DNA from: a virus
Virus record (IMG/VR): IMGVR_UViG_3300028883_000041
Coordinates: 21,588-85,587 of that record
Direction: 5' to 3' (one strand)
DNA length: 64,000 nucleotides
The first letter of the stretch is position 1. Each line of letters opens with the position of its first letter. A model generated the notes under the pieces. The model did no database searches, was not told the origin of the DNA, and saw nothing but the letters and a program-made list of their open reading frames with translations. The position numbers and the translations under genes were made by a program. Below, in pieces: positions 55,833 to 63,474 of the stretch.

Positions 55833-56440
55833 CAATATCTACCTCTGTTTATTAATTCTAACATAATCTTCGATGCCATAAAAGCATCATAACTTGCTCT
55901 ATGAAAACCGTAATCCCTTATAGTATCAAGAGTTTGTTGATTTATCTTGAGTATAGGAAGCCCAAACACAATATAATTGGTCGCTTCCTCTAAATTAGCC
56001 ATTTTGAAATTAAATTTTTTATGTCCTTTCTTCAAATAGTTAGTAGCCATTCGCATGATGCATGGTGCTTTATGACGATAATAATACCACATATTGAAAG
56101 GTTCCCTATCCAAGAACCTCATGAAATCAAAATCAGTGTTATATGATGTGACAACTTTATCGCTAAGAAGACTTATCAGTTCCCTTTTAACTGTAATTAT
56201 AGGTCTTCCCTCAGTTAATATATCTTCTGTTCTAATATCACTGTTCTTTGCTAACCAAGAGTTAGGATAAGACCATCTTATAATATCATCTTTAGCATAC
56301 TTTACTAAACTATTATACATTAGTTCAATACCACCAGTATTAGGTTCTGCTCTACATACAGCCACTTCTACTATATGGTCTCTTGCTGTAAGTCCAGTAG
56401 TTTCTAAATCAATTACATATATATCATTCATTCTTCTCAC
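55832..56440 (-). CDS. DEDDh (DnaQ/RNase T-like) 3'-5' exonuclease
   Basis: VIDLETTG, YNTDFD, HRASYDA. Confidence 0.9.
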   Translation of the reverse strand: MRRMNDIYVIDLETTGLTARDHIVEVAVCRAEPNTGGIELMYNSLVKYAKDDIIRWSYPNSWLAKNSDIRTEDILTEGRPIITVKRELISLLSDKVVTSYNTDFDFMRFLDREPFNMWYYYRHKAPCIMRMATNYLKKGHKKFNFKMANLEEATNYIVFGLPILKINQQTLDTIRDYGFHRASYDAFMASKIMLELINRGRY

Positions 56441-56447
56441 TTCTTTT

Positions 56448-56524
56448 TGGTGGGACTGAAGAGATTTGAACTCTAACCCTTGGGGTCTGGAGCCCCTTAT
56501 GCTACCAGACTACACCACAGTCCC
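56448..56524 (-). tRNA. trnW: tRNA-Trp(CCA), intronless, CCA encoded
   Basis: GGGACTG/CAGTCCC acceptor, GGGG-CTCCAGA-CCCC anticodon arm, GTTCAAATC T-loop, ACCA end. Confidence 0.88.
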
Positions 56525-56530
56525 AATCAT

Positions 56531-56740
56531 TACGACCATAGGCACCCACTCAAGTTTAAATGCATTGGACTTTACGCTAACTATCGCCTATGTTTATCGT
56601 GCTTGAGATTTAATTCACATCTCTCGGCTCTTGGTATTTTGTTTGATATGGTTCTCAACCATAGCGACCCAATGTCCAGACACCGTGGAAGCTTCCATCT
56701 ATCCTTCTTGGAACAGTATCCTTATCTTGGTTTATCGTGG
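56531..56740 (-). ncRNA. Putative structured ncRNA between the minihelix and tRNA-Trp
   Basis: Helices ACGAT-AAA-CATAGGC/GCCTATG-GTCGT, ATGGTT/AACCAT, CATTGG/CCAATG, CTCAAG/CTTGAG; CACGATAAAC occurs twice. Confidence 0.45.
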
Positions 56741-56741
56741 T

Positions 56742-56778
56742 TGGTGCACCCAGCCAGATTTGAACTGGTTATGGGTGC
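56742..56778 (-). ncRNA. 37-nt tRNA minihelix (acceptor stem + T arm + ACCA; no D or anticodon arm)
   Basis: GCACCCA TA ACCAG TTCAAAT CTGGC TGGGTGC ACCA. Confidence 0.7.
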
Positions 56779-56785
56779 TTAGATT

Positions 56786-56929
56786 GGGTGGATGGTAGGG
56801 GATTTGAACCCCACTTGGCATCCAGTTTCCTTGACAGATAGCTCTTCTATCAAGTTTCCTTTCTTTTGCCTTTTCAGTTGAAGCCAGATACTCATGGAGT
56901 TGTTCCTTCTTCCACTTTCGCTTCCATCC
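56786..56929 (-). ncRNA. About 144-nt tRNA-like RNA with expanded interior
   Basis: GGATGG/CCATCC acceptor, GGGG-TTCAAAT-CCCC T arm, internal hairpin CTTGATAGA/TCTGTCAAG. Confidence 0.6.
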
Positions 56930-56934
56930 ATATT

Positions 56935-57016
56935 TGGTGTTCGGAGGTGGGAATTGAACCCACGGTGTACCAAAGCTGTTATCAGCCCAGCGGTCCCATT
57001 ACGCCCTACTCCAAAC
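56935..57016 (-). tRNA. Non-canonical tRNA-like RNA (8-bp acceptor/5-bp T stem; Ile-like CTGATAA in an irregular anticodon arm)
   Basis: GTTTGGAG/CTCCGAAC + ACCA; GTGGG-TTCAATT-CCCAC; D stem GGCG/CGCT. Confidence 0.6.
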
Positions 57017-57025
57017 ATGAATTAA

Positions 57026-57201
57026 TAGGATGGGTTGGGGTCACTGTATTTGTCAGCACCCAACTATGAGTTTGCCCTCTTACCGTTACCGTATCATGAA
57101 TTCAGAGGCTCTTACACTTGCAGTAAGTCTGTTTTCCTTACCTACGTGATTCTCTCGCAGTTCTTCCGTATGCGTCCATCAGCGTCTTCTGGTCCATCCT
57201 A
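57026..57201 (-). ncRNA. About 176-nt structured ncRNA with closed terminal stem
   Basis: TAGGATGG/CCATCCTA ends; hairpins CTTAC/GTAAG, GCCTCT/AGAGG(G)C, GTTGGG..CCCAAC; begins at the predicted TSS. Confidence 0.6.
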
Positions 57202-57222
57202 AAATGTATATACAAATAATAG

Positions 57223-57236
57223 TATTTAAAGGTTTC
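57223..57236 (-). promoter_or_regulatory. BRE-TATA promoter of the ncRNA polycistron
   Basis: GAAACC TTTAAATA about 30 nt upstream of the 5' end of the 57201 RNA. Confidence 0.7.
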
Positions 57237-57246
57237 GAAAAAAAGG

Positions 57247-58275
57247 TTATGAAGAGAGTAAGTTCTCTTCAAGTATTTGGAAAAATAGTTCTCTAATTAG
57301 TCCAGCGTGTTTATTCATTCTCTTGTTGAATGCTCTATGAAGGAGTTTATCAATCTCCTCTTTCTGCTCTGCTAAGATATCTTGGAAGACATCACCTATG
57401 ACAGAACCAGTATACTGCCTATCAATCTTCCCACGACCATGCTGTTCTTCGAGTTTCATGATAGACTTCTGGACCCTTCCCTTGGTTATGTAACTCTCCA
57501 TGATATATTGAACAATTTCATCTATATCTGCTGAACCTTTCTTGGTCTTATCTTTGTTTGCAACACCACTTAAAGCTTCTTTGAACTCCTCTCTGACAAA
57601 CTTGACCATAGGCAAGATAGTCTCCTCACCTAATGATTGCCAGAATTCTCCATCATGATATGGCTCATAGTTCTTGAAAATCACGCCTTCTCTCATCTGA
57701 CCTCCCAGATAAGACTCTACCTTGTGTTCTTCTCTTGCCCAAGTGAATAGGTCTTGCATGGCACACTCACTCTTTCCACTGAATAGGATTGGAACCTTGT
57801 CAAAATCCATGAGTTTGACTATGCTATCAAACAACTCACATTCTGGATGTAACATCGTGAAGGTCCCATCTCTTATCGCTGCTATATCAAACACCGCAAG
57901 ATAGTTCTTGGGTATCCTCTCATAATACAATGTCGAGTGTCTTGGTTTGCTCAGATACTCTCCGAAGATGATTATGCTATCATACTCCATACTCTCCAGA
58001 GTGTTCATCATCTTTTCTCTAACATTCCAACTGTCCATATGTTTAGTAACATAGTCTATGATTGGTCTGAATGTTTTCTTACTGAAGCTGTCATCTGTCT
58101 CGTCTTGGGTCCTACTTCCGAACTGGACAGTTCCATCCTTGTTTATCCCTATTCTGAAATTGCTTCCATCAATCTTTTCTTCCAGCACTATCTGTGCTCC
58201 ACTCTCAAATCTTTCCCATTGGATGTATTTCGCATTACTTCCCAACGGATGTTTCACTTTTGGATATTTCTTCAT
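57247..58275 (-). CDS. ATP-dependent RNA ligase (Rnl2-like)
   Basis: YPK, motif I EEKIDGSNFR, IIFGEY, AVFDI, EGVIFK, VKFV..FKE; T-run after the stop. Confidence 0.85.
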   Translation of the reverse strand: MKKYPKVKHPLGSNAKYIQWERFESGAQIVLEEKIDGSNFRIGINKDGTVQFGSRTQDETDDSFSKKTFRPIIDYVTKHMDSWNVREKMMNTLESMEYDSIIIFGEYLSKPRHSTLYYERIPKNYLAVFDIAAIRDGTFTMLHPECELFDSIVKLMDFDKVPILFSGKSECAMQDLFTWAREEHKVESYLGGQMREGVIFKNYEPYHDGEFWQSLGEETILPMVKFVREEFKEALSGVANKDKTKKGSADIDEIVQYIMESYITKGRVQKSIMKLEEQHGRGKIDRQYTGSVIGDVFQDILAEQKEEIDKLLHRAFNKRMNKHAGLIRELFFQILEENLLSS

Positions 58276-58677: not shown

Positions 58678-58838
58678 TGTTCATCACCTATCCGTCCATG
58701 TACATACAGTAGAAGCACTTCCTTTTTAAAGGTTTTCATCGCCCTCATGTCATCGAAGGTCGCACACGGAAAGTTTAGAGATGAGGGTGTGAGATTGAAA
58801 TAAAGGCTTGTTTTTGTCCATTATACAGAACCTTTTAA

Positions 58839-58871
58839 CTCGCTTTCCTCAGACCATGATTTAAGAGCGTC
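58839..58871 (+). repeat. Repeat site 0 (degenerate): CTCGCT-N10-CATG-N7-AGCGTC
   Basis: Matches the four fuller copies to the right. Confidence 0.55.
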
Positions 58872-58954
58872 TAAAGGCTGTTTGTGGTTTGGGGTTGGTT
58901 GGGTGTAAATAATTAGTAAGCGTTTAATGAGAATAGATTAATGAGGTTGTTAAA

Positions 58955-59995
58955 TTGTTAAACGAAAATTACCAACATCGAAAAATCAATTTGATAGATA
59001 TTGATATCGTACTAGTGCTTAAAGTATTTGCTTCTTATGTCACTATTACAGTTTATCATAATTCAACTAAATTGAGAACACAAAAATTCAATGGTGTGCA
59101 AAGTCGAAAATACTTTTTGAGTATTTACGACAATGCTTTGAATATCGGTTTTGATGAATTAACCGAAACTTTAACCCTATTCGCAAAAAGCAAATATCCA
59201 GAATTTGACTTTAAGACTTTGTCCAACTTCCTTAAAGGATTGATGGATGAACAAAGTTTAATTAAAGAGGAATTCGACAGATTAGATTTAAGCTTTGACA
59301 ATGAGTTAAGTTCAAGTTATAACTTAAGCGTGTTTGAAAACAAAAAAGCTGTTTGTTATGCGAGAAGGTCAATAAACCTTAATATTGGTTCTGGCATTGA
59401 AACATACGAGAAACAAACATTAAAGCTTTTATCACTTGCTCAACAAGTCTTTGAAGAAAAAGAGATTTATACTTTAATGATTGACGAACTAAGCGGTTAC
59501 TACTCACCCACATTAATTAAACGACTGTTCAAAGAAACAAGCGTTCAAGTTGTTTATATTGATAGAGTTGACCGATTAGGACGAAACGTTTTAGCATTGC
59601 TTGATTTATTGGACTATTGCTTAAGAAACAAGAAAGACATTCGTACTAGTGAAGGGTCAATAATTAGAGGTTTCGGATATATCCAAAGCGTGATTATGGG
59701 TTTATTTGCTGAGTTTGAATTACTGAGCAAACAAACAAAATTCAGCTATTACCTTATTGAAGTCGTTAAGTTCGAGCTTGGCTTAATCGCTTTTGATGAT
59801 ATGAGCGACAAAGCAGAAAAACTCTTTAGACTTGGACGTTTTAGTGCTAAAGAAGATTTCTTAAATAAAGCGTACGATTTCGCTTCAAAGGTAGTAGCAG
59901 AAAAAGACAAAACCGACAAGAACGGCAAAAGGCTACACGGCGAAGAAATATTAAAATCAGCTCTTGAAGTTATCGAGTTACTCGATAACCGATAA
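58955..59995 (+). CDS. Serine recombinase (resolvase catalytic domain) with uncharacterised N-terminal extension
   Basis: AVCYARRS (catalytic Ser), DELSG, DRVDRLGRN, helix E IMGLFAEFE; GAGGT RBS before TTG. Confidence 0.82.
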   Translation: MLNENYQHRKINLIDIDIVLVLKVFASYVTITVYHNSTKLRTQKFNGVQSRKYFLSIYDNALNIGFDELTETLTLFAKSKYPEFDFKTLSNFLKGLMDEQSLIKEEFDRLDLSFDNELSSSYNLSVFENKKAVCYARRSINLNIGSGIETYEKQTLKLLSLAQQVFEEKEIYTLMIDELSGYYSPTLIKRLFKETSVQVVYIDRVDRLGRNVLALLDLLDYCLRNKKDIRTSEGSIIRGFGYIQSVIMGLFAEFELLSKQTKFSYYLIEVVKFELGLIAFDDMSDKAEKLFRLGRFSAKEDFLNKAYDFASKVVAEKDKTDKNGKRLHGEEILKSALEVIELLDNR

Positions 59996-60035
59996 GAGCT
60001 TTTTTTTTGGCTTTTCATCGTGTCATTTTTGGGTT

Positions 60036-60077
60036 GTCGCTGGGTGTCGCTTGGTGTATTCATGGTTACAGAGCGAC
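60036..60077 (+). repeat. Repeat site 1: GTCGCT-N4-GTCGCT-N9-CATG-N7-AGCGAC
   Basis: Read directly; also a 10-bp inverted repeat (GGTTGTCGCT/AGCGACAACC) followed by a T run. Confidence 0.8.
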
Positions 60078-60296
60078 AACCTTTTTTTTGGTATCTTGGT
60101 GTGGTGTGGTGTGGTTGGTGTGGTGTGCTTGGCTTGGGTAGTTTCGGCAATATCCCCCTTAACAATCCCCCTAAGATGTAAGAAATAAGATAACTAAAAA
60201 CTTATGTTTTGAATGAATGATAAAAGAGAATGAAAGAGAGAGTAAGGCTAAAGTGAGGTTGTTAAACGCTTGTGTTTTCTTACTCTCTCAATCAGC

Positions 60297-60695
60297 TTAA
60301 ACTATTATTTCGTACTTATTGCTTTGTTCTATACTATCAATTATATAGATTGTTTCTTTATTGGTATTGTCAAATATAGCTACTTGATTGTGTGCCAAAG
60401 CTAAGTTTATAGCTGTTGCTAAGTCTTCAACAATAACAGAGTTTTCAATATAACATATATTGTCTTTATCTATCCAACAGCCGATTAATTGTCCTTTTTG
60501 GGAATAAAATCTATATTGATTAATGATAGATTTAAAGAGTTCAAAATTCATTATTGTCATACTAAAACTTGAAGGAATACCAGATATAGAAACAAAATAC
60601 CCTTCATTTTCTACAGTGTTTAAGTCTGTATCTACTGTAAAACCATTTTCTAAAAGCATTAGTCCGTAAAGTTCTTTTTCGTTGAGTTTGCTCAT
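60297..60695 (-). CDS. Hypothetical protein (cassette A)
   Basis: Own promoter; GFT..GY.VS..IGCW..Q.AIFD pattern. Confidence 0.6.
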   Translation of the reverse strand: MSKLNEKELYGLMLLENGFTVDTDLNTVENEGYFVSISGIPSSFSMTIMNFELFKSIINQYRFYSQKGQLIGCWIDKDNICYIENSVIVEDLATAINLALAHNQVAIFDNTNKETIYIIDSIEQSNKYEIIV

Positions 60696-60706
60696 AATTA
60701 TACTAT

Positions 60707-60778
60707 TGTATTACAGTATTTAAACCCTTTGGATTTCTCGCTGAGTGTCGCTAAAGGTAGCCATGATAACAGAGCGAC
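60707..60778 (-). promoter_or_regulatory. Repeat site 2 + TATA + TGTAATACA palindrome
   Basis: Site 60737-60778; TTTAAATA 12 nt away; TGTAATACA at 60707-60715. Confidence 0.8.
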
Positions 60779-60838
60779 CACAATAAAAAATAAAGAGTTG
60801 AAAAGTGGGAAAGGACAAAACCCACTAATCAACAAGCG

Positions 60839-61180
60839 TTAAAATTCTTTAACATCTATAAGATGTTCAATAGGTAGGTACCAATCAATTGAAGTGTATA
60901 TTCTATATACTGTATTTTGTCCTTTACTCATTTCATAAAATTTAGCTCTGTCTTCAATATTATTTACCCAAACATGTATTTTAATAGGTTGTGCATATCT
61001 AATATAACATTCTACTAATTTAATGTTATAGTTATCGTCCTTTCTTACTATTGAATTTGCACGACCTATTAACTGATTAACAGCTCTTACTAAATAGCTA
61101 TTGTCTCTTACTTGTTCTTTGTTGTGTATGTCACCTTTGAACTCTATATTATCCAAATGAATATAATCTACTGTGCTCAT
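60839..61180 (-). CDS. Hypothetical protein (cassette B)
   Basis: ORF track; overlap with upstream gene. Confidence 0.55.
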   Translation of the reverse strand: MSTVDYIHLDNIEFKGDIHNKEQVRDNSYLVRAVNQLIGRANSIVRKDDNYNIKLVECYIRYAQPIKIHVWVNNIEDRAKFYEMSKGQNTVYRIYTSIDWYLPIEHLIDVKEF

Positions 61181-61509
61181 TGTACTAACCCTCTTTGTAT
61201 TCTGTCTTTGAGTGTCTCAAAGTAATTAAGTGTATGTTCTGTAATGTCGATAAACTCGCTATCTATTCTAAGGTATATCTTAAAGTACCATCCGTGTCCT
61301 TCGGCTCTGTCACAACCTTCGTCTCCATCTTCAACATATCTGAACCACCTATTCAATAAGTTGTATAGTTGTGCGTTATCGTGTATCTCTTCTAATTCTT
61401 GCTCTTTTGTATATGAAACAAAAAGGCTTTTGTCGTATAATTCATATTGGTTTGAGTATTCTTCTATGTTGCTGTATCTGTGGTATTCTTGGTAATATAG
61501 TTTAATCAT
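61177..61509 (-). CDS. Hypothetical acidic protein (cassette B)
   Basis: ORF track; TAATG overlap. Confidence 0.55.
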   Translation of the reverse strand: MIKLYYQEYHRYSNIEEYSNQYELYDKSLFVSYTKEQELEEIHDNAQLYNLLNRWFRYVEDGDEGCDRAEGHGWYFKIYLRIDSEFIDITEHTLNYFETLKDRIQRGLVQ

Positions 61510-61931
61510 TAGTATTCACCTTCTAAAGAAATAGCCTTTTTCCAAGTGTGTTTATTACCATCCCAATAAGGAAGGGTACAAGCTAAAGTTAAACACGAAT
61601 ATTTGTCTTTTCCACAAATTCCGTCATATGCAAAGTATATTAACTCTCCAATAGTCATTTTAGGGTACATTTTACCTATTCTATACCAATCAATTAAATA
61701 GTTTGGTATTTTGCTATCTCCTAAAGTATTTCTCCATAACTGTACTTGAATATCTTTAAGAGTATAATTACTGTAATTCTCAACATATTGTTTAGCTTCT
61801 TCAATTAAAGAATAAACTGTCCTATCTCCATAAATCTGAATATAGTGACCTTGAGCATTACCGTAACCATCTGAACTCATTCTTATTTCAAAGAATTTAA
61901 TGTCCTTAATTTTTGGTTTGTGTTCGTTCAT
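61509..61931 (-). CDS. Hypothetical protein (cassette B)
   Basis: Leaderless ATG after the promoter. Confidence 0.6.
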   Translation of the reverse strand: MNEHKPKIKDIKFFEIRMSSDGYGNAQGHYIQIYGDRTVYSLIEEAKQYVENYSNYTLKDIQVQLWRNTLGDSKIPNYLIDWYRIGKMYPKMTIGELIYFAYDGICGKDKYSCLTLACTLPYWDGNKHTWKKAISLEGEY

Positions 61932-61942
61932 ACTTTAACTAC

Positions 61943-62014
61943 TGTATTACACTATATAAACCTAACGAAAAAGTCGCTTGATGTCGCTAAGTTCAGCCAT
62001 GACCTAACAGCGAC
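61943..62014 (-). promoter_or_regulatory. Repeat site 3 + TATA + TGTAATACA
   Basis: Site 61973-62014; TTTATATA 12 nt away; palindrome at 61943-61951. Confidence 0.8.
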
Positions 62015-62047
62015 TACTAACGAAAAAGAGCGAAAAAAAGAAAAATG

Positions 62048-62653
62048 TTAAATAAGTTTGAAATATATCTTATCTGAAGTGTTACTAATGAGGTGTTGCA
62101 GTAGTTCTATTAAATCTGAATGGTCTTTTTCTTTTCTAACAGCATTGACCTTACACATCATATCTGTCAGTCGCCTCTCATCTATATCTGCTTTTATAAG
62201 ATGTAAGATGTAAGATGTAAATTCCTTAAACTTAACGAAATAATTAAGCATATTCTCTTCAATTAATGCAACAACTTCTTCAACTGCTTCATACAAGTAA
62301 TCAAACTTACCTTCATCTCTGTAACAATCGTTTTGCTCATCGTACTCACAAGTCTGAAAGATTTCTTGGTCTATTAGTTCATCTAACCATTCTTTAATGA
62401 CTTCTTCTTCAACATTTGTTTCTTGTTCAAAATGTTCCTTTAACAGTTCGTAAAATCTGTATTGATTGTATTCAATCCATTTATCTACTTTTCTGTATTG
62501 GTCACAGCTCGAACACTTATCAAAATCACTCTCGTACCAAAGCCAACATTGAAAGAACTCTTCTAAAGTGGTTGCTGTATTGTAACTGTAATAGTAGTCG
62601 TCATATACCTTTTTCTCCCAATCACCTATTTTTATCCAAAGTTCGTTTGCCAT
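62048..62653 (-). CDS. Highly acidic hypothetical protein (cassette C)
   Basis: E/D- and aromatic-rich; CSSC. Confidence 0.6.
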   Translation of the reverse strand: MANELWIKIGDWEKKVYDDYYYSYNTATTLEEFFQCWLWYESDFDKCSSCDQYRKVDKWIEYNQYRFYELLKEHFEQETNVEEEVIKEWLDELIDQEIFQTCEYDEQNDCYRDEGKFDYLYEAVEEVVALIEENMLNYFVKFKEFTSYILHLIKADIDERRLTDMMCKVNAVRKEKDHSDLIELLQHLISNTSDKIYFKLI

Positions 62654-62696
62654 TTTTATTCATTCCTCAGTAACAAAAAAATGAAACCAAAAGAAC

Positions 62697-62921
62697 TTAA
62701 TCTCTTGGTTTGTATTTGAATACATTTACACCAAAGCGAATAGCTTTGTCAGCCCCTTCAATAATTTTGTTACCAGAAGTGGTAGCTATCTTGTAGGTCT
62801 TCTCACCTTCACCGTAAGGCTCTGCTTCTAATTCAATTCGCAAGTGTAATATTTTACCATCCGCAGAAAGCTTGTATTCTACGTTTTTGGCATTTTCTGG
62901 AGTTGTGTATCCGTTGGTCAT
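62697..62921 (-). CDS. Small beta-rich hypothetical protein (cassette C)
   Basis: NVEYK..LHLRIEL..KTYKIATTSGN..FGVNVFK. Confidence 0.6.
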   Translation of the reverse strand: MTNGYTTPENAKNVEYKLSADGKILHLRIELEAEPYGEGEKTYKIATTSGNKIIEGADKAIRFGVNVFKYKPRD

Positions 62922-62944
62922 TTTTATTACCTAAGATTATTATC

Positions 62945-63017
62945 TGTATTACAGTATATAAATCTGTTGAATATCTCGCTCAAAGTCGCTGACCGCCTCT
63001 CATGACCTTTTAGCGAC
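62945..63017 (-). promoter_or_regulatory. Repeat site 4 + TATA + TGTAATACA
   Basis: Site 62975-63017 (N10 left spacer); TTTATATA 12 nt away; palindrome at 62945-62953. Confidence 0.8.
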
Positions 63018-63474
63018 CAGAGAGTACCCACAGAGCAACTATCCGCCTTTTAACGCACTTTTGCCCCCCTAACAGCTTTTATAAGATGTTAGATTAACAG
63101 ATATTAATCGTTTTAAATCATCCGCTATCGCATGTATTCCTATACACTCCTTACCCAATGATTTGGAGATATACACACACACAGAAAAAAACAAAGTTCT
63201 ACTATCTACTCGTGGGGGCGAGAAGAGAGAAAAAAAGGGAAGTGCATATTGTATCACACTACCTTTTTGTAAAAAGTTCGACTATATTCAAAGGTTTTGA
63301 ACCGCTTCTAACATTTACAAGAAGAAGATAGAAAGGCTGTAAGTAACTTTGCAAAGGTATCGAAGAAAAGCAGTTGTATCACAAGAAAAACCCATTTAAG
63401 TACTATATAATATGGCGTTTGCGTGTGATACAAATGTGATACAAAAAAAGGTTGTTGGGCGAACAGCCCAGCAG

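Follow-up and report, generated by a model that had tools for sequence, protein, structure and literature searches.

The DNA analyzed here derives from an uncultivated, archaeal-type tailed virus of marine sediment. A stretch of 64,000 bases (the window), which comprises bases 21588-85587 of the 85,587-base IMG/VR record IMGVR_UViG_3300028883_000041, encodes a protein of the serine recombinase family (P0001) amid an array of short repeated sites (S0 to S5; Table 1), and four of these sites stand at one fixed distance upstream of archaeal-type promoters. We interpret the array, with about even confidence, as a set of promoter-coupled binding sites for the virus's own serine-recombinase-family protein, which would serve mainly in gene control, with rare strand exchange as a possible further activity. 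This interpretation builds on the sites themselves, their phasing with promoters, their confinement to the neighborhood of the recombinase gene, and a parallel arrangement in relatives; from these we infer binding of the sites by P0001, the sign of any regulation, and any recombination.

The full site, (G/C)TCGCT-N4-GTCGCT-N9/10-CATG-N7-AGCGAC, occurs in four exact copies beginning at 60036 (S1), 60737 (S2), 61973 (S3), and 62975 (S4), all on the plus strand as written and in a single orientation. Its paired direct boxes (TCGCT-N4-GTCGCT) are found four times on the plus strand (60037, 60738, 61974, and 62976) against 0.09 expected from shuffled sequences, and its two-armed portion (GTCGCT-N9/10-CATG-N7-AGCGAC) four times against an expectation of zero. 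A scan of the whole genome allowing up to three mismatches returned only these four and the copy at 58839 (S0), while shuffles give 0.35; S0 departs from the full site at two positions and has one direct box instead of two. The original prediction of four exact copies and one partial copy in the same orientation is thus borne out by the pattern counts, the shuffles, and the mismatch scan, as is its statement that the sites bracket the recombinase gene and blocks of one, three, and two genes. Its total of five sites holds within the window, and a sixth, S5, lies just past the window end, only ∼2.6 kb beyond S4 once the genome ends are joined. What the copies share amounts to the 6-bp boxes, CATG, and ∼10-13 nt at the start region, and the longest exact identity between site modules is 13 nt in this virus and 19 nt in the relative described below.

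Read on the minus strand, the elements follow one order: the oligo-T end of the preceding operon, GTCGCT, N7, CATG, N9/10, AGCGAC, N4, AGCGA(G/C), N12, TTTAWATA, ∼21-33 nt, and ATG. The distance from the proximal box to TTTAWAWA is exactly 12 nt at S2, S3, and S4, for which it had been predicted, and also at S5, where the boxes face the TATA element TTTATAAA. These 12-nt spacers vary in sequence among sites and keep their length. It had also been proposed that the two copies flanking the recombinase gene lack a TATA box at this position; this is the case for S1 alone, which is situated where the 3′ ends of the recombinase gene and the 132-aa gene converge, whereas S0 retains a decayed octamer (GTATAATG) at the same exact distance. 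From CATG to TATA the distances are 37, 37, and 38 nt here, compared with 37, 37, 36, and 37 nt in a collinear relative (G001), so that the center of the site lies ∼43 bp, or about four helical turns, from the center of the TATA box. Sites head four consecutive operons (S5, S4, S3, and S2), and in either virus the array closes at its far end with a promoter site that retains boxes only (S5 here, site 5 in G001). Because the TATA phasing is maintained in two viruses with otherwise different sites, and because boxes-only sites persist at promoters, these arrangements show that the element works together with the transcription machinery. The earlier suggestion of promoter-linked, activator-type sites is well supported by this fixed geometry in two viruses and by the boxes-only promoter sites.

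Judged from their sequence, the promoters carry the TATA octamer and are of the archaeal type (transcription factor B recognition element, BRE, and TATA). The motif aaaggTTTAWATA is found at operon starts, mostly 20-40 nt before the ATG, with TTTAWAWA concentrated likewise in both viruses; internal genes carry ribosome sites of the GGAGG or GGTGAT kind. Portal, sheath, and baseplate proteins are encoded in the window, and the closest GenBank relatives of the portal are from haloarchaeal tailed viruses (25% identity). One member of the recombinase family occurs in a record labeled as a Heimdallarchaeaceae metagenome-assembled genome, and the sequence is present in two runs, both marine-sediment metagenomes. 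On these grounds (portal relatives, TTTAWATA at operon starts, the Heimdallarchaeaceae record, and the sediment source) the promoters were treated as archaeal. Numerous other promoters in this genome are without boxes.

The initial 136 bases of the record equal the final 136 with one mismatch (G000:C1 1-136 and 85452-85587), and an independent assembly of the source run yielded 85,476 bases with its start point elsewhere; the genome is therefore circular or terminally redundant at ∼85.45 kb, and it is probably complete in one of these forms, although the record is listed as linear and 60% complete. As a separate feature of the genome, GATC is absent (0 observed, 331 expected), as are GGCC, CCGG, CGCG, and GCGC, and CTAG is nearly so (5 observed, 251 expected). 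G001 avoids the same words, which suggests strong pressure from restriction systems on both viruses.

The parallel arrangement is that of G001 (IMGVR_UViG_3300033149_002633; 79,254 bp, with a 114-bp terminal repeat). This virus is collinear with the one studied here, with sixty ORF (open reading frame) matches in the same order (some in overlapping frames) at 25-74% identity, and core genes 45-74% identical; its recombinase (P0015) has 33% identity to P0001. Each of the two complete viruses has exactly one gene matching the resolvase domain PF00239, neither has a match to PF00589 (tyrosine integrase), and the sites occupy only ∼8.5 kb (this virus) and 5.3 kb (G001) around this sole recombinase gene. 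G001 has five sites, and its array ends at the recombinase gene, which is inverted here relative to G001 and which in G001 is itself included in one site-headed operon. The G001 site reads (TTCGG-N3-TTCGG)-N11-CATG-N11/12-(CCGAA-N3-CCGWA)-N13-TTTAAATA, reduced to the two promoter-side boxes in the copy farthest from the recombinase. The two viruses thus share the CATG center but not the boxes, the box period (8 bp in G001, 10 bp here), or the inner spacers. The arms of the G001 sites are symmetric about the middle of CATG, and the conserved center is therefore the palindrome CATG and not CA. The exact symmetry about CA that had been described for three copies does exist as N9-CA-N9 in S1 to S3 (S4 has N10), but a crossover at CA is not favored over one at the AT of CATG.

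A third context, a 2.7 kb contig (L030) carrying the family member P0006, has the recombinase as the sole gene shared with either virus in tblastx comparisons. Its site is AGTATACT-N8-CATG-N8-AGTACACT, and two CATGA-N8-AGTATACT half sites lie directly upstream of the recombinase TATA. Conservation of the site center thus parallels that of the protein's catalytic part, as variation of the boxes does that of its N-terminus. Exact-pattern scans of IMG/VR for the site, and for the boxes with TATA, returned single chance matches only, none with the extra box; the full 21-base site pattern was absent from 185,579 species genomes, and the G001 pattern was found in IMG/VR only in G001 itself. A search for related loci (queries P0001, A1, A2, P0008, and P0009) found none in IMG/VR or the species genomes and L030 alone in metagenomes, and no relative of the recombinase or the locus was found among GenBank phages.

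P0001 matches PF00239 over residues 132-256 (32.7 bits, cut-off 23.3; 34.5 bits in a six-frame search), and in the second sample the gene call begins 12 codons later. An exhaustive HMMER search delineated a family of 19 cluster representatives (297-391 aa), in whose alignment S139, R207, and R210 do not vary, R137 reaches at least 90% conservation, and a FAExEL..KQT helix is preserved, while the N-terminal 100-130 residues cannot be aligned. By its catalytic domain and its R-x-S … D-R-x-x-R set, P0001 is assigned to the serine recombinase superfamily. In the AlphaFold model, the catalytic domain and a helical bundle at the C-terminus (residues 262-346) are predicted with confidence, residues 1-120 poorly. 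Fold matches to the catalytic domain include a serine integrase (Z 10.9; rmsd, the root-mean-square deviation, 3.3 Å over 131 aligned residues), Sin (Z 9.4; rmsd 2.6 Å over 108), and an IS607-like TnpA (IS1535 TnpA; Z 8.0), while the bundle gave generic matches only (Z ≤ 5.2). No known family matched the N-terminal 130 residues or the C-terminal bundle, sequence searches of a protein atlas and the PDB returned nothing usable for either part, and Pfam identified no helix-turn-helix (HTH) family in P0001 and no MerR or HTH_17 match in any of the 19 members. A ribbon-helix-helix is found at the N-terminus of two or three family members (RHH_1, RelB-like, and aCcr1-like matches). P0001 is not a large serine integrase, given its 346 residues (the class exceeds 400) and PF00239 as its sole domain at E values up to 0.1.

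Table 1. Coordinates of the recombinase gene, the sites, and the gene blocks between them (window positions unless marked otherwise).
Feature	Position	Strand	Details
Serine-recombinase-family gene (P0001), 346 aa	58955..59995	+	TTG start; alternative TTG at 58991
S0, degenerate site	58839..58871	-	CTCGCT-N10-CATG-N7-AGCGTC; TATA-like GTATAATG at 58819-58826, minus strand, 12 nt from box
S1, perfect site	60036..60077	-	GTCGCT-N4-GTCGCT-N9-CATG-N7-AGCGAC; convergent gap behind the recombinase gene; no TATA at 12 nt
S2 with promoter	60717..60778	-	TTTAAATA at 60717-60724; boxes 60737-60742 and 60747-60752; CATG 60762-60765; inverted box 60773-60778
S3 with promoter	61953..62014	-	TTTATATA at 61953-61960
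S4 with promoter	62955..63017	-	TTTATATA at 62955-62962; left spacer N10
S5, sixth site, boxes only	contig 1763-1788 (L001 1500-1525), beyond the window		three direct boxes in 10-bp steps; no CATG, no inverted arm
Block 1	60297..60695	-	132-aa gene, function not assigned; expressed from the S2 promoter
Block 2	60839..61931	-	genes of 140, 110, and 113 aa; headed by S3
Block 3	62048..62921	-	genes of 74 and 201 aa; headed by S4
S5 operon	beyond the window		282, 202, and further small genes

P0001 is the best candidate for the binding factor because the sites are confined to the vicinity of the sole recombinase gene, the boxes and the head of the protein change jointly, and CATG is shared where the recombinase core would sit. 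In the mechanism that we favor, the outer hexamer boxes would be read by the variable N-terminal part of the recombinase, with the invariant CATG center lying under the conserved catalytic core. The bound complex, four helical turns upstream of the TATA center, would be opposite TBP/TFB and control the expression of the accessory operons, four or five in a row. Its everyday function would be transcription control, which in G001 would extend to the recombinase gene. Recombination is kept in consideration because the catalytic residues are intact, S1 is perfect without a promoter, and blocks turn over. A likely secondary activity would be rare strand exchange between sites at the AT of CATG, by which promoter-bearing gene blocks could be excised, inserted, or swapped, accounting for both S1 and the gene turnover.

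Several points weigh against this interpretation. Binding of the boxes by P0001 is a prediction, no DNA-binding fold having been recognized in its N- or C-terminal parts, and another fast-evolving viral factor could read them instead. The three family contexts inspected were all reached via the recombinase, and the association of protein and site is not an unbiased sample. A purely regulatory role leaves the promoter-less S1 unexplained, and the invariance of the catalytic residues argues for selection on catalysis and not just on binding.

An integron-like platform is a somewhat unlikely alternative, in which a cut at the CATG center would excise, insert, and reorder promoter-bearing blocks, and each block would inherit its TATA distance as it moved. 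Such a cassette system had been proposed in the original prediction, and several observations speak for it indirectly: the full sites share an orientation and cluster at the sole recombinase gene, the catalytic serine and arginines are invariant, S1 is perfect yet lacks a promoter, and the sites accompany the family in three viruses, with the CATG center kept and the boxes differing. The box-TATA spacers, however, have diverged in sequence and kept their length in two viruses, which points to selection on promoter geometry, and boxes-only sites without CATG have been retained. In its favor, the longest exact identities between modules make poor substrates for homologous exchange in both viruses, at 13 nt too short in this one for it to be efficient; against it, direct repeats would mainly delete genes.

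The blocks themselves provide evidence of both kinds. Gene content between sites differs between the collinear relatives: the genes of the array with matches in G001 are limited to those for the 140-aa, 113-aa, and 132-aa products and the recombinase, and G001 has a whole extra site-bounded block (101, 148, and 80 aa). The clearly shared genes nevertheless keep their order (140/113, then 132, then the recombinase). The 132-aa product corresponds to a G001 protein of 122 aa (33% identity), whose gene is directly upstream of the recombinase gene there, and the 140-aa product aligns with the N-terminal part, the 113-aa product with the C-terminal part, of a single 269-aa G001 ORF. The 110-aa ORF between them is without a match, an arrangement that could reflect either a split gene or an inserted gene. 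The 74-aa protein may be related to the 101-aa product, which is encoded by the first gene of the differently placed G001 block (pairwise BLASTP E 6e-5; Smith-Waterman Z 6.9, fifth of 210 pairs, next best 4.7), and were the two truly kin, the viruses would differ in block order. No homologues of the 74-aa protein were found for a profile comparison with the 101-aa protein, and the 201-aa protein has no significant match among G001 proteins. None of the products of the four site-headed operons matched Pfam, and only one had a weak PHROG match.

Population data, in the form of assembled contigs from two marine-sediment runs (X1 and X2), bear on the same alternative. In the contigs of both runs the order is unchanged and no site-to-site joint, the recombination product that a cassette system would leave, is present, which is weak evidence since contigs hide rare forms. 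The assembly from the second study splits into two branches precisely at S2 (60714-60825). One allele is the sequence of this virus; the other keeps the boxes and CATG, with the 20-nt spacer region altered at nine positions plus a one-base insertion, and with a 2-base deletion ∼17 nt beyond the inverted box. This second allele reads GTCGCT-TTAA-CTCGTT-CATG-ATATAAG-AGCGAC, by which a third, imperfect direct box arises, and the flanks of the two alleles differ by 0.2-0.75% only. The spacer change is a local replacement and not a simple hybrid of other sites, and no hybrid spacers were seen among the sites, which also counts against an integron-like platform. Exchange between S0 and S1, with the recombinase segment inverted as a result, was rejected on reading, as the arm structures that it predicts are unlike those observed. 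Elsewhere, 1,475 bases of a tRNA-like region (56027-57503) are missing from one contig of the second sample, with weak support (only 21 bases on one side).

It is unlikely, though still to be weighed, that some other transcription factor, viral or host, uses the boxes as its operators and that the recombinase is a mere neighbor, perhaps engaged in multimer resolution or in integration via another site or via S0 and S1 only. Promoter-bearing intergenic repeats are known from archaeal tailed viruses without any recombinase (HF2; PMC8707807). No DNA-binding domain was recognized in P0001. Direct hexamer repeats just upstream of BRE/TATA would also suit ordinary archaeal activators. A separate factor would not account for the change of site type along with the recombinase in three viruses, for CATG at the position of the recombinase core, or for the restriction of the sites to the neighborhood of the recombinase gene in both complete genomes. 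The one conserved neighboring gene (132 aa; 122 aa in G001) has no Pfam match at E ≤ 0.1, and by eye its protein was judged unlike a DNA-binding protein. Very improbable is a set of passive repeats of the PeSL (promoter early stem-loop) kind, which would offer short homologies to general recombination with no dedicated protein: the layout does resemble T4-type PeSL cassettes, with an oligo-T end, a repeat, and a promoter flanking small ORFans in a variable myovirus region (PMC2839356, PMC4122927), but identity between copies is limited to the short stretches given above, and it is the box pattern and spacing that are conserved rather than the sequence, as is typical of protein-binding sites.

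Further sequence features were recorded in and around the array. A direct repeat, CTAACGAAAAAG (61962-61973 and 62017-62028), borders S3 on both sides; it resembles a target duplication and has no equivalent at the other sites. GT-rich runs (GGTGTGG-like) follow S0 (58885-58905) and S1 (60089-60142), the latter apparently extended by ∼23 nt in the other sample, where 77 contig bases span 54 window bases, and in G001 a G-rich run likewise follows the recombinase gene. The convergent gap between the 132-aa gene and S1 also contains a perfect 11-bp hairpin (GAGAGAGTAAG / CTTACTCTCTC; 60236-60288). On the opposite side of the S5 boxes (L001 1526-1640, contig ∼1790-1900), the plus strand carries TTTATATA, then a hairpin (GAGACCAA…TTGGTCTC) and a T-run, which together may encode a small divergent RNA; Rfam returned no match around S5. 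Upstream of S4, a long non-coding stretch (63250-63443) contains four copies of TGTATCACA/TGTGATACA, two of which form an inverted pair, and related TGTAWTACA words coincide in part with the promoter start regions at S2 to S4; these may represent a second set of operators. Common to both viruses is the repeat (AGATGTA)n or its complement ATCTTACATCTTA, often beside C-runs in non-coding sequence near operon ends (here at 60173-60186, 62198-62222, 63080-63095, and L001 ∼1640-1665, the second of these inside the 201-aa ORF; in G001 at L031 2318-2335 and L034 ∼1670-1690). The possibility that CATG provides the start codon of a mini-ORF was rejected on reading, since frames and lengths differ between sites.

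Among known systems, the Tn3/gamma-delta resolvase offers a precedent for a double role, as this serine recombinase acts at res and also represses promoters within its site. The two systems are alike in the catalytic domain, in two-armed sites with a central crossover position, and in the placement of sites at promoters. Unlike the resolvase, however, the protein described here has its extra domain at the N-terminus and no detectable C-terminal HTH, and in place of one three-part res there are five or six dispersed single sites ∼1 kb apart, fixed 37 nt upstream of an archaeal TATA box, in an element that is a virus. TnpA proteins of the IS607 family have an N-terminal DNA-binding part, a C-terminal helical region, and multiple repeated binding motifs (PMC6188088, PMC4058570), and P0001 resembles them in this inverted domain order, the helical C-terminus, the repeated motifs, and the catalytic fold. 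It is set apart from that family by the absence of a MerR-type HTH (no MerR or HTH_17 among the 19 members), of TnpB (no large ORF adjoins the recombinase gene), and of transposon ends, and by sites that are promoter-linked and CATG-centered.

In integrons, as here, sites in one orientation are arrayed next to a recombinase gene and delimit small accessory gene blocks whose content varies from relative to relative. Here, in contrast, the enzyme is a serine and not a tyrosine recombinase, and the absence of PF00589 from both virus genomes excludes an integron built on IntI and attC; the sites are double-stranded and two-armed and precede each block at its 5′ end, each block comes with a promoter of its own, and any mobility of the blocks is conjectural. 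The PeSL of T4-type phages are promoter/stem-loop cassettes that work through sequence homology (PMC2839356, PMC4122927); they too are composite terminator-promoter repeats flanking ORFan blocks in a hyperplastic myovirus region. In the present array only short boxes and spacing are conserved, a dedicated recombinase gene lies within it, and the longest exact identities between modules (13 and 19 nt) place it outside the PeSL type. The Class I and II intergenic repeats of halovirus HF2 carry promoters and are presumed to be bound by viral regulators (PMC8707807); they are likewise repeated, promoter-carrying intergenic elements of an archaeal tailed virus, but the HF2 repeat is the core promoter itself, whereas here a separate, upstream, two-armed site is tied to a recombinase family. 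The system is a member of none of these (resolvase/res, integrons, PeSL, or HF2 repeats), because it has no tyrosine recombinase, no long homologies, and no recognizable C-terminal HTH or MerR head. No description of this recombinase branch, or of promoter-phased, CATG-centered sites, was found in the literature searched.

A broader proposal, which we advance tentatively, is that archaeal viruses have here their equivalent of the integron, run by a serine recombinase whose N-terminal reading head is exchangeable and whose CATG-centered sites are built in upstream of promoters, such that blocks excised, captured, or reordered by it would arrive in an expressible state and under the recombinase's own transcriptional control. 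If the recombinase does bind the sites, it would represent an undescribed branch of the serine recombinases, distinguished by an N-terminal head that varies, a core site in which CATG is conserved, an additional bundle at the C-terminus, and sites phased with archaeal promoters. Site-specific recombination would then be linked to transcription control in archaeal viruses, providing a mechanism by which accessory genes are quickly replaced in the variable regions of these viruses. With one 346-aa protein and 42-bp sites the system is compact, and its natural pairs of differing box sets and protein heads could reveal how such enzymes change specificity.

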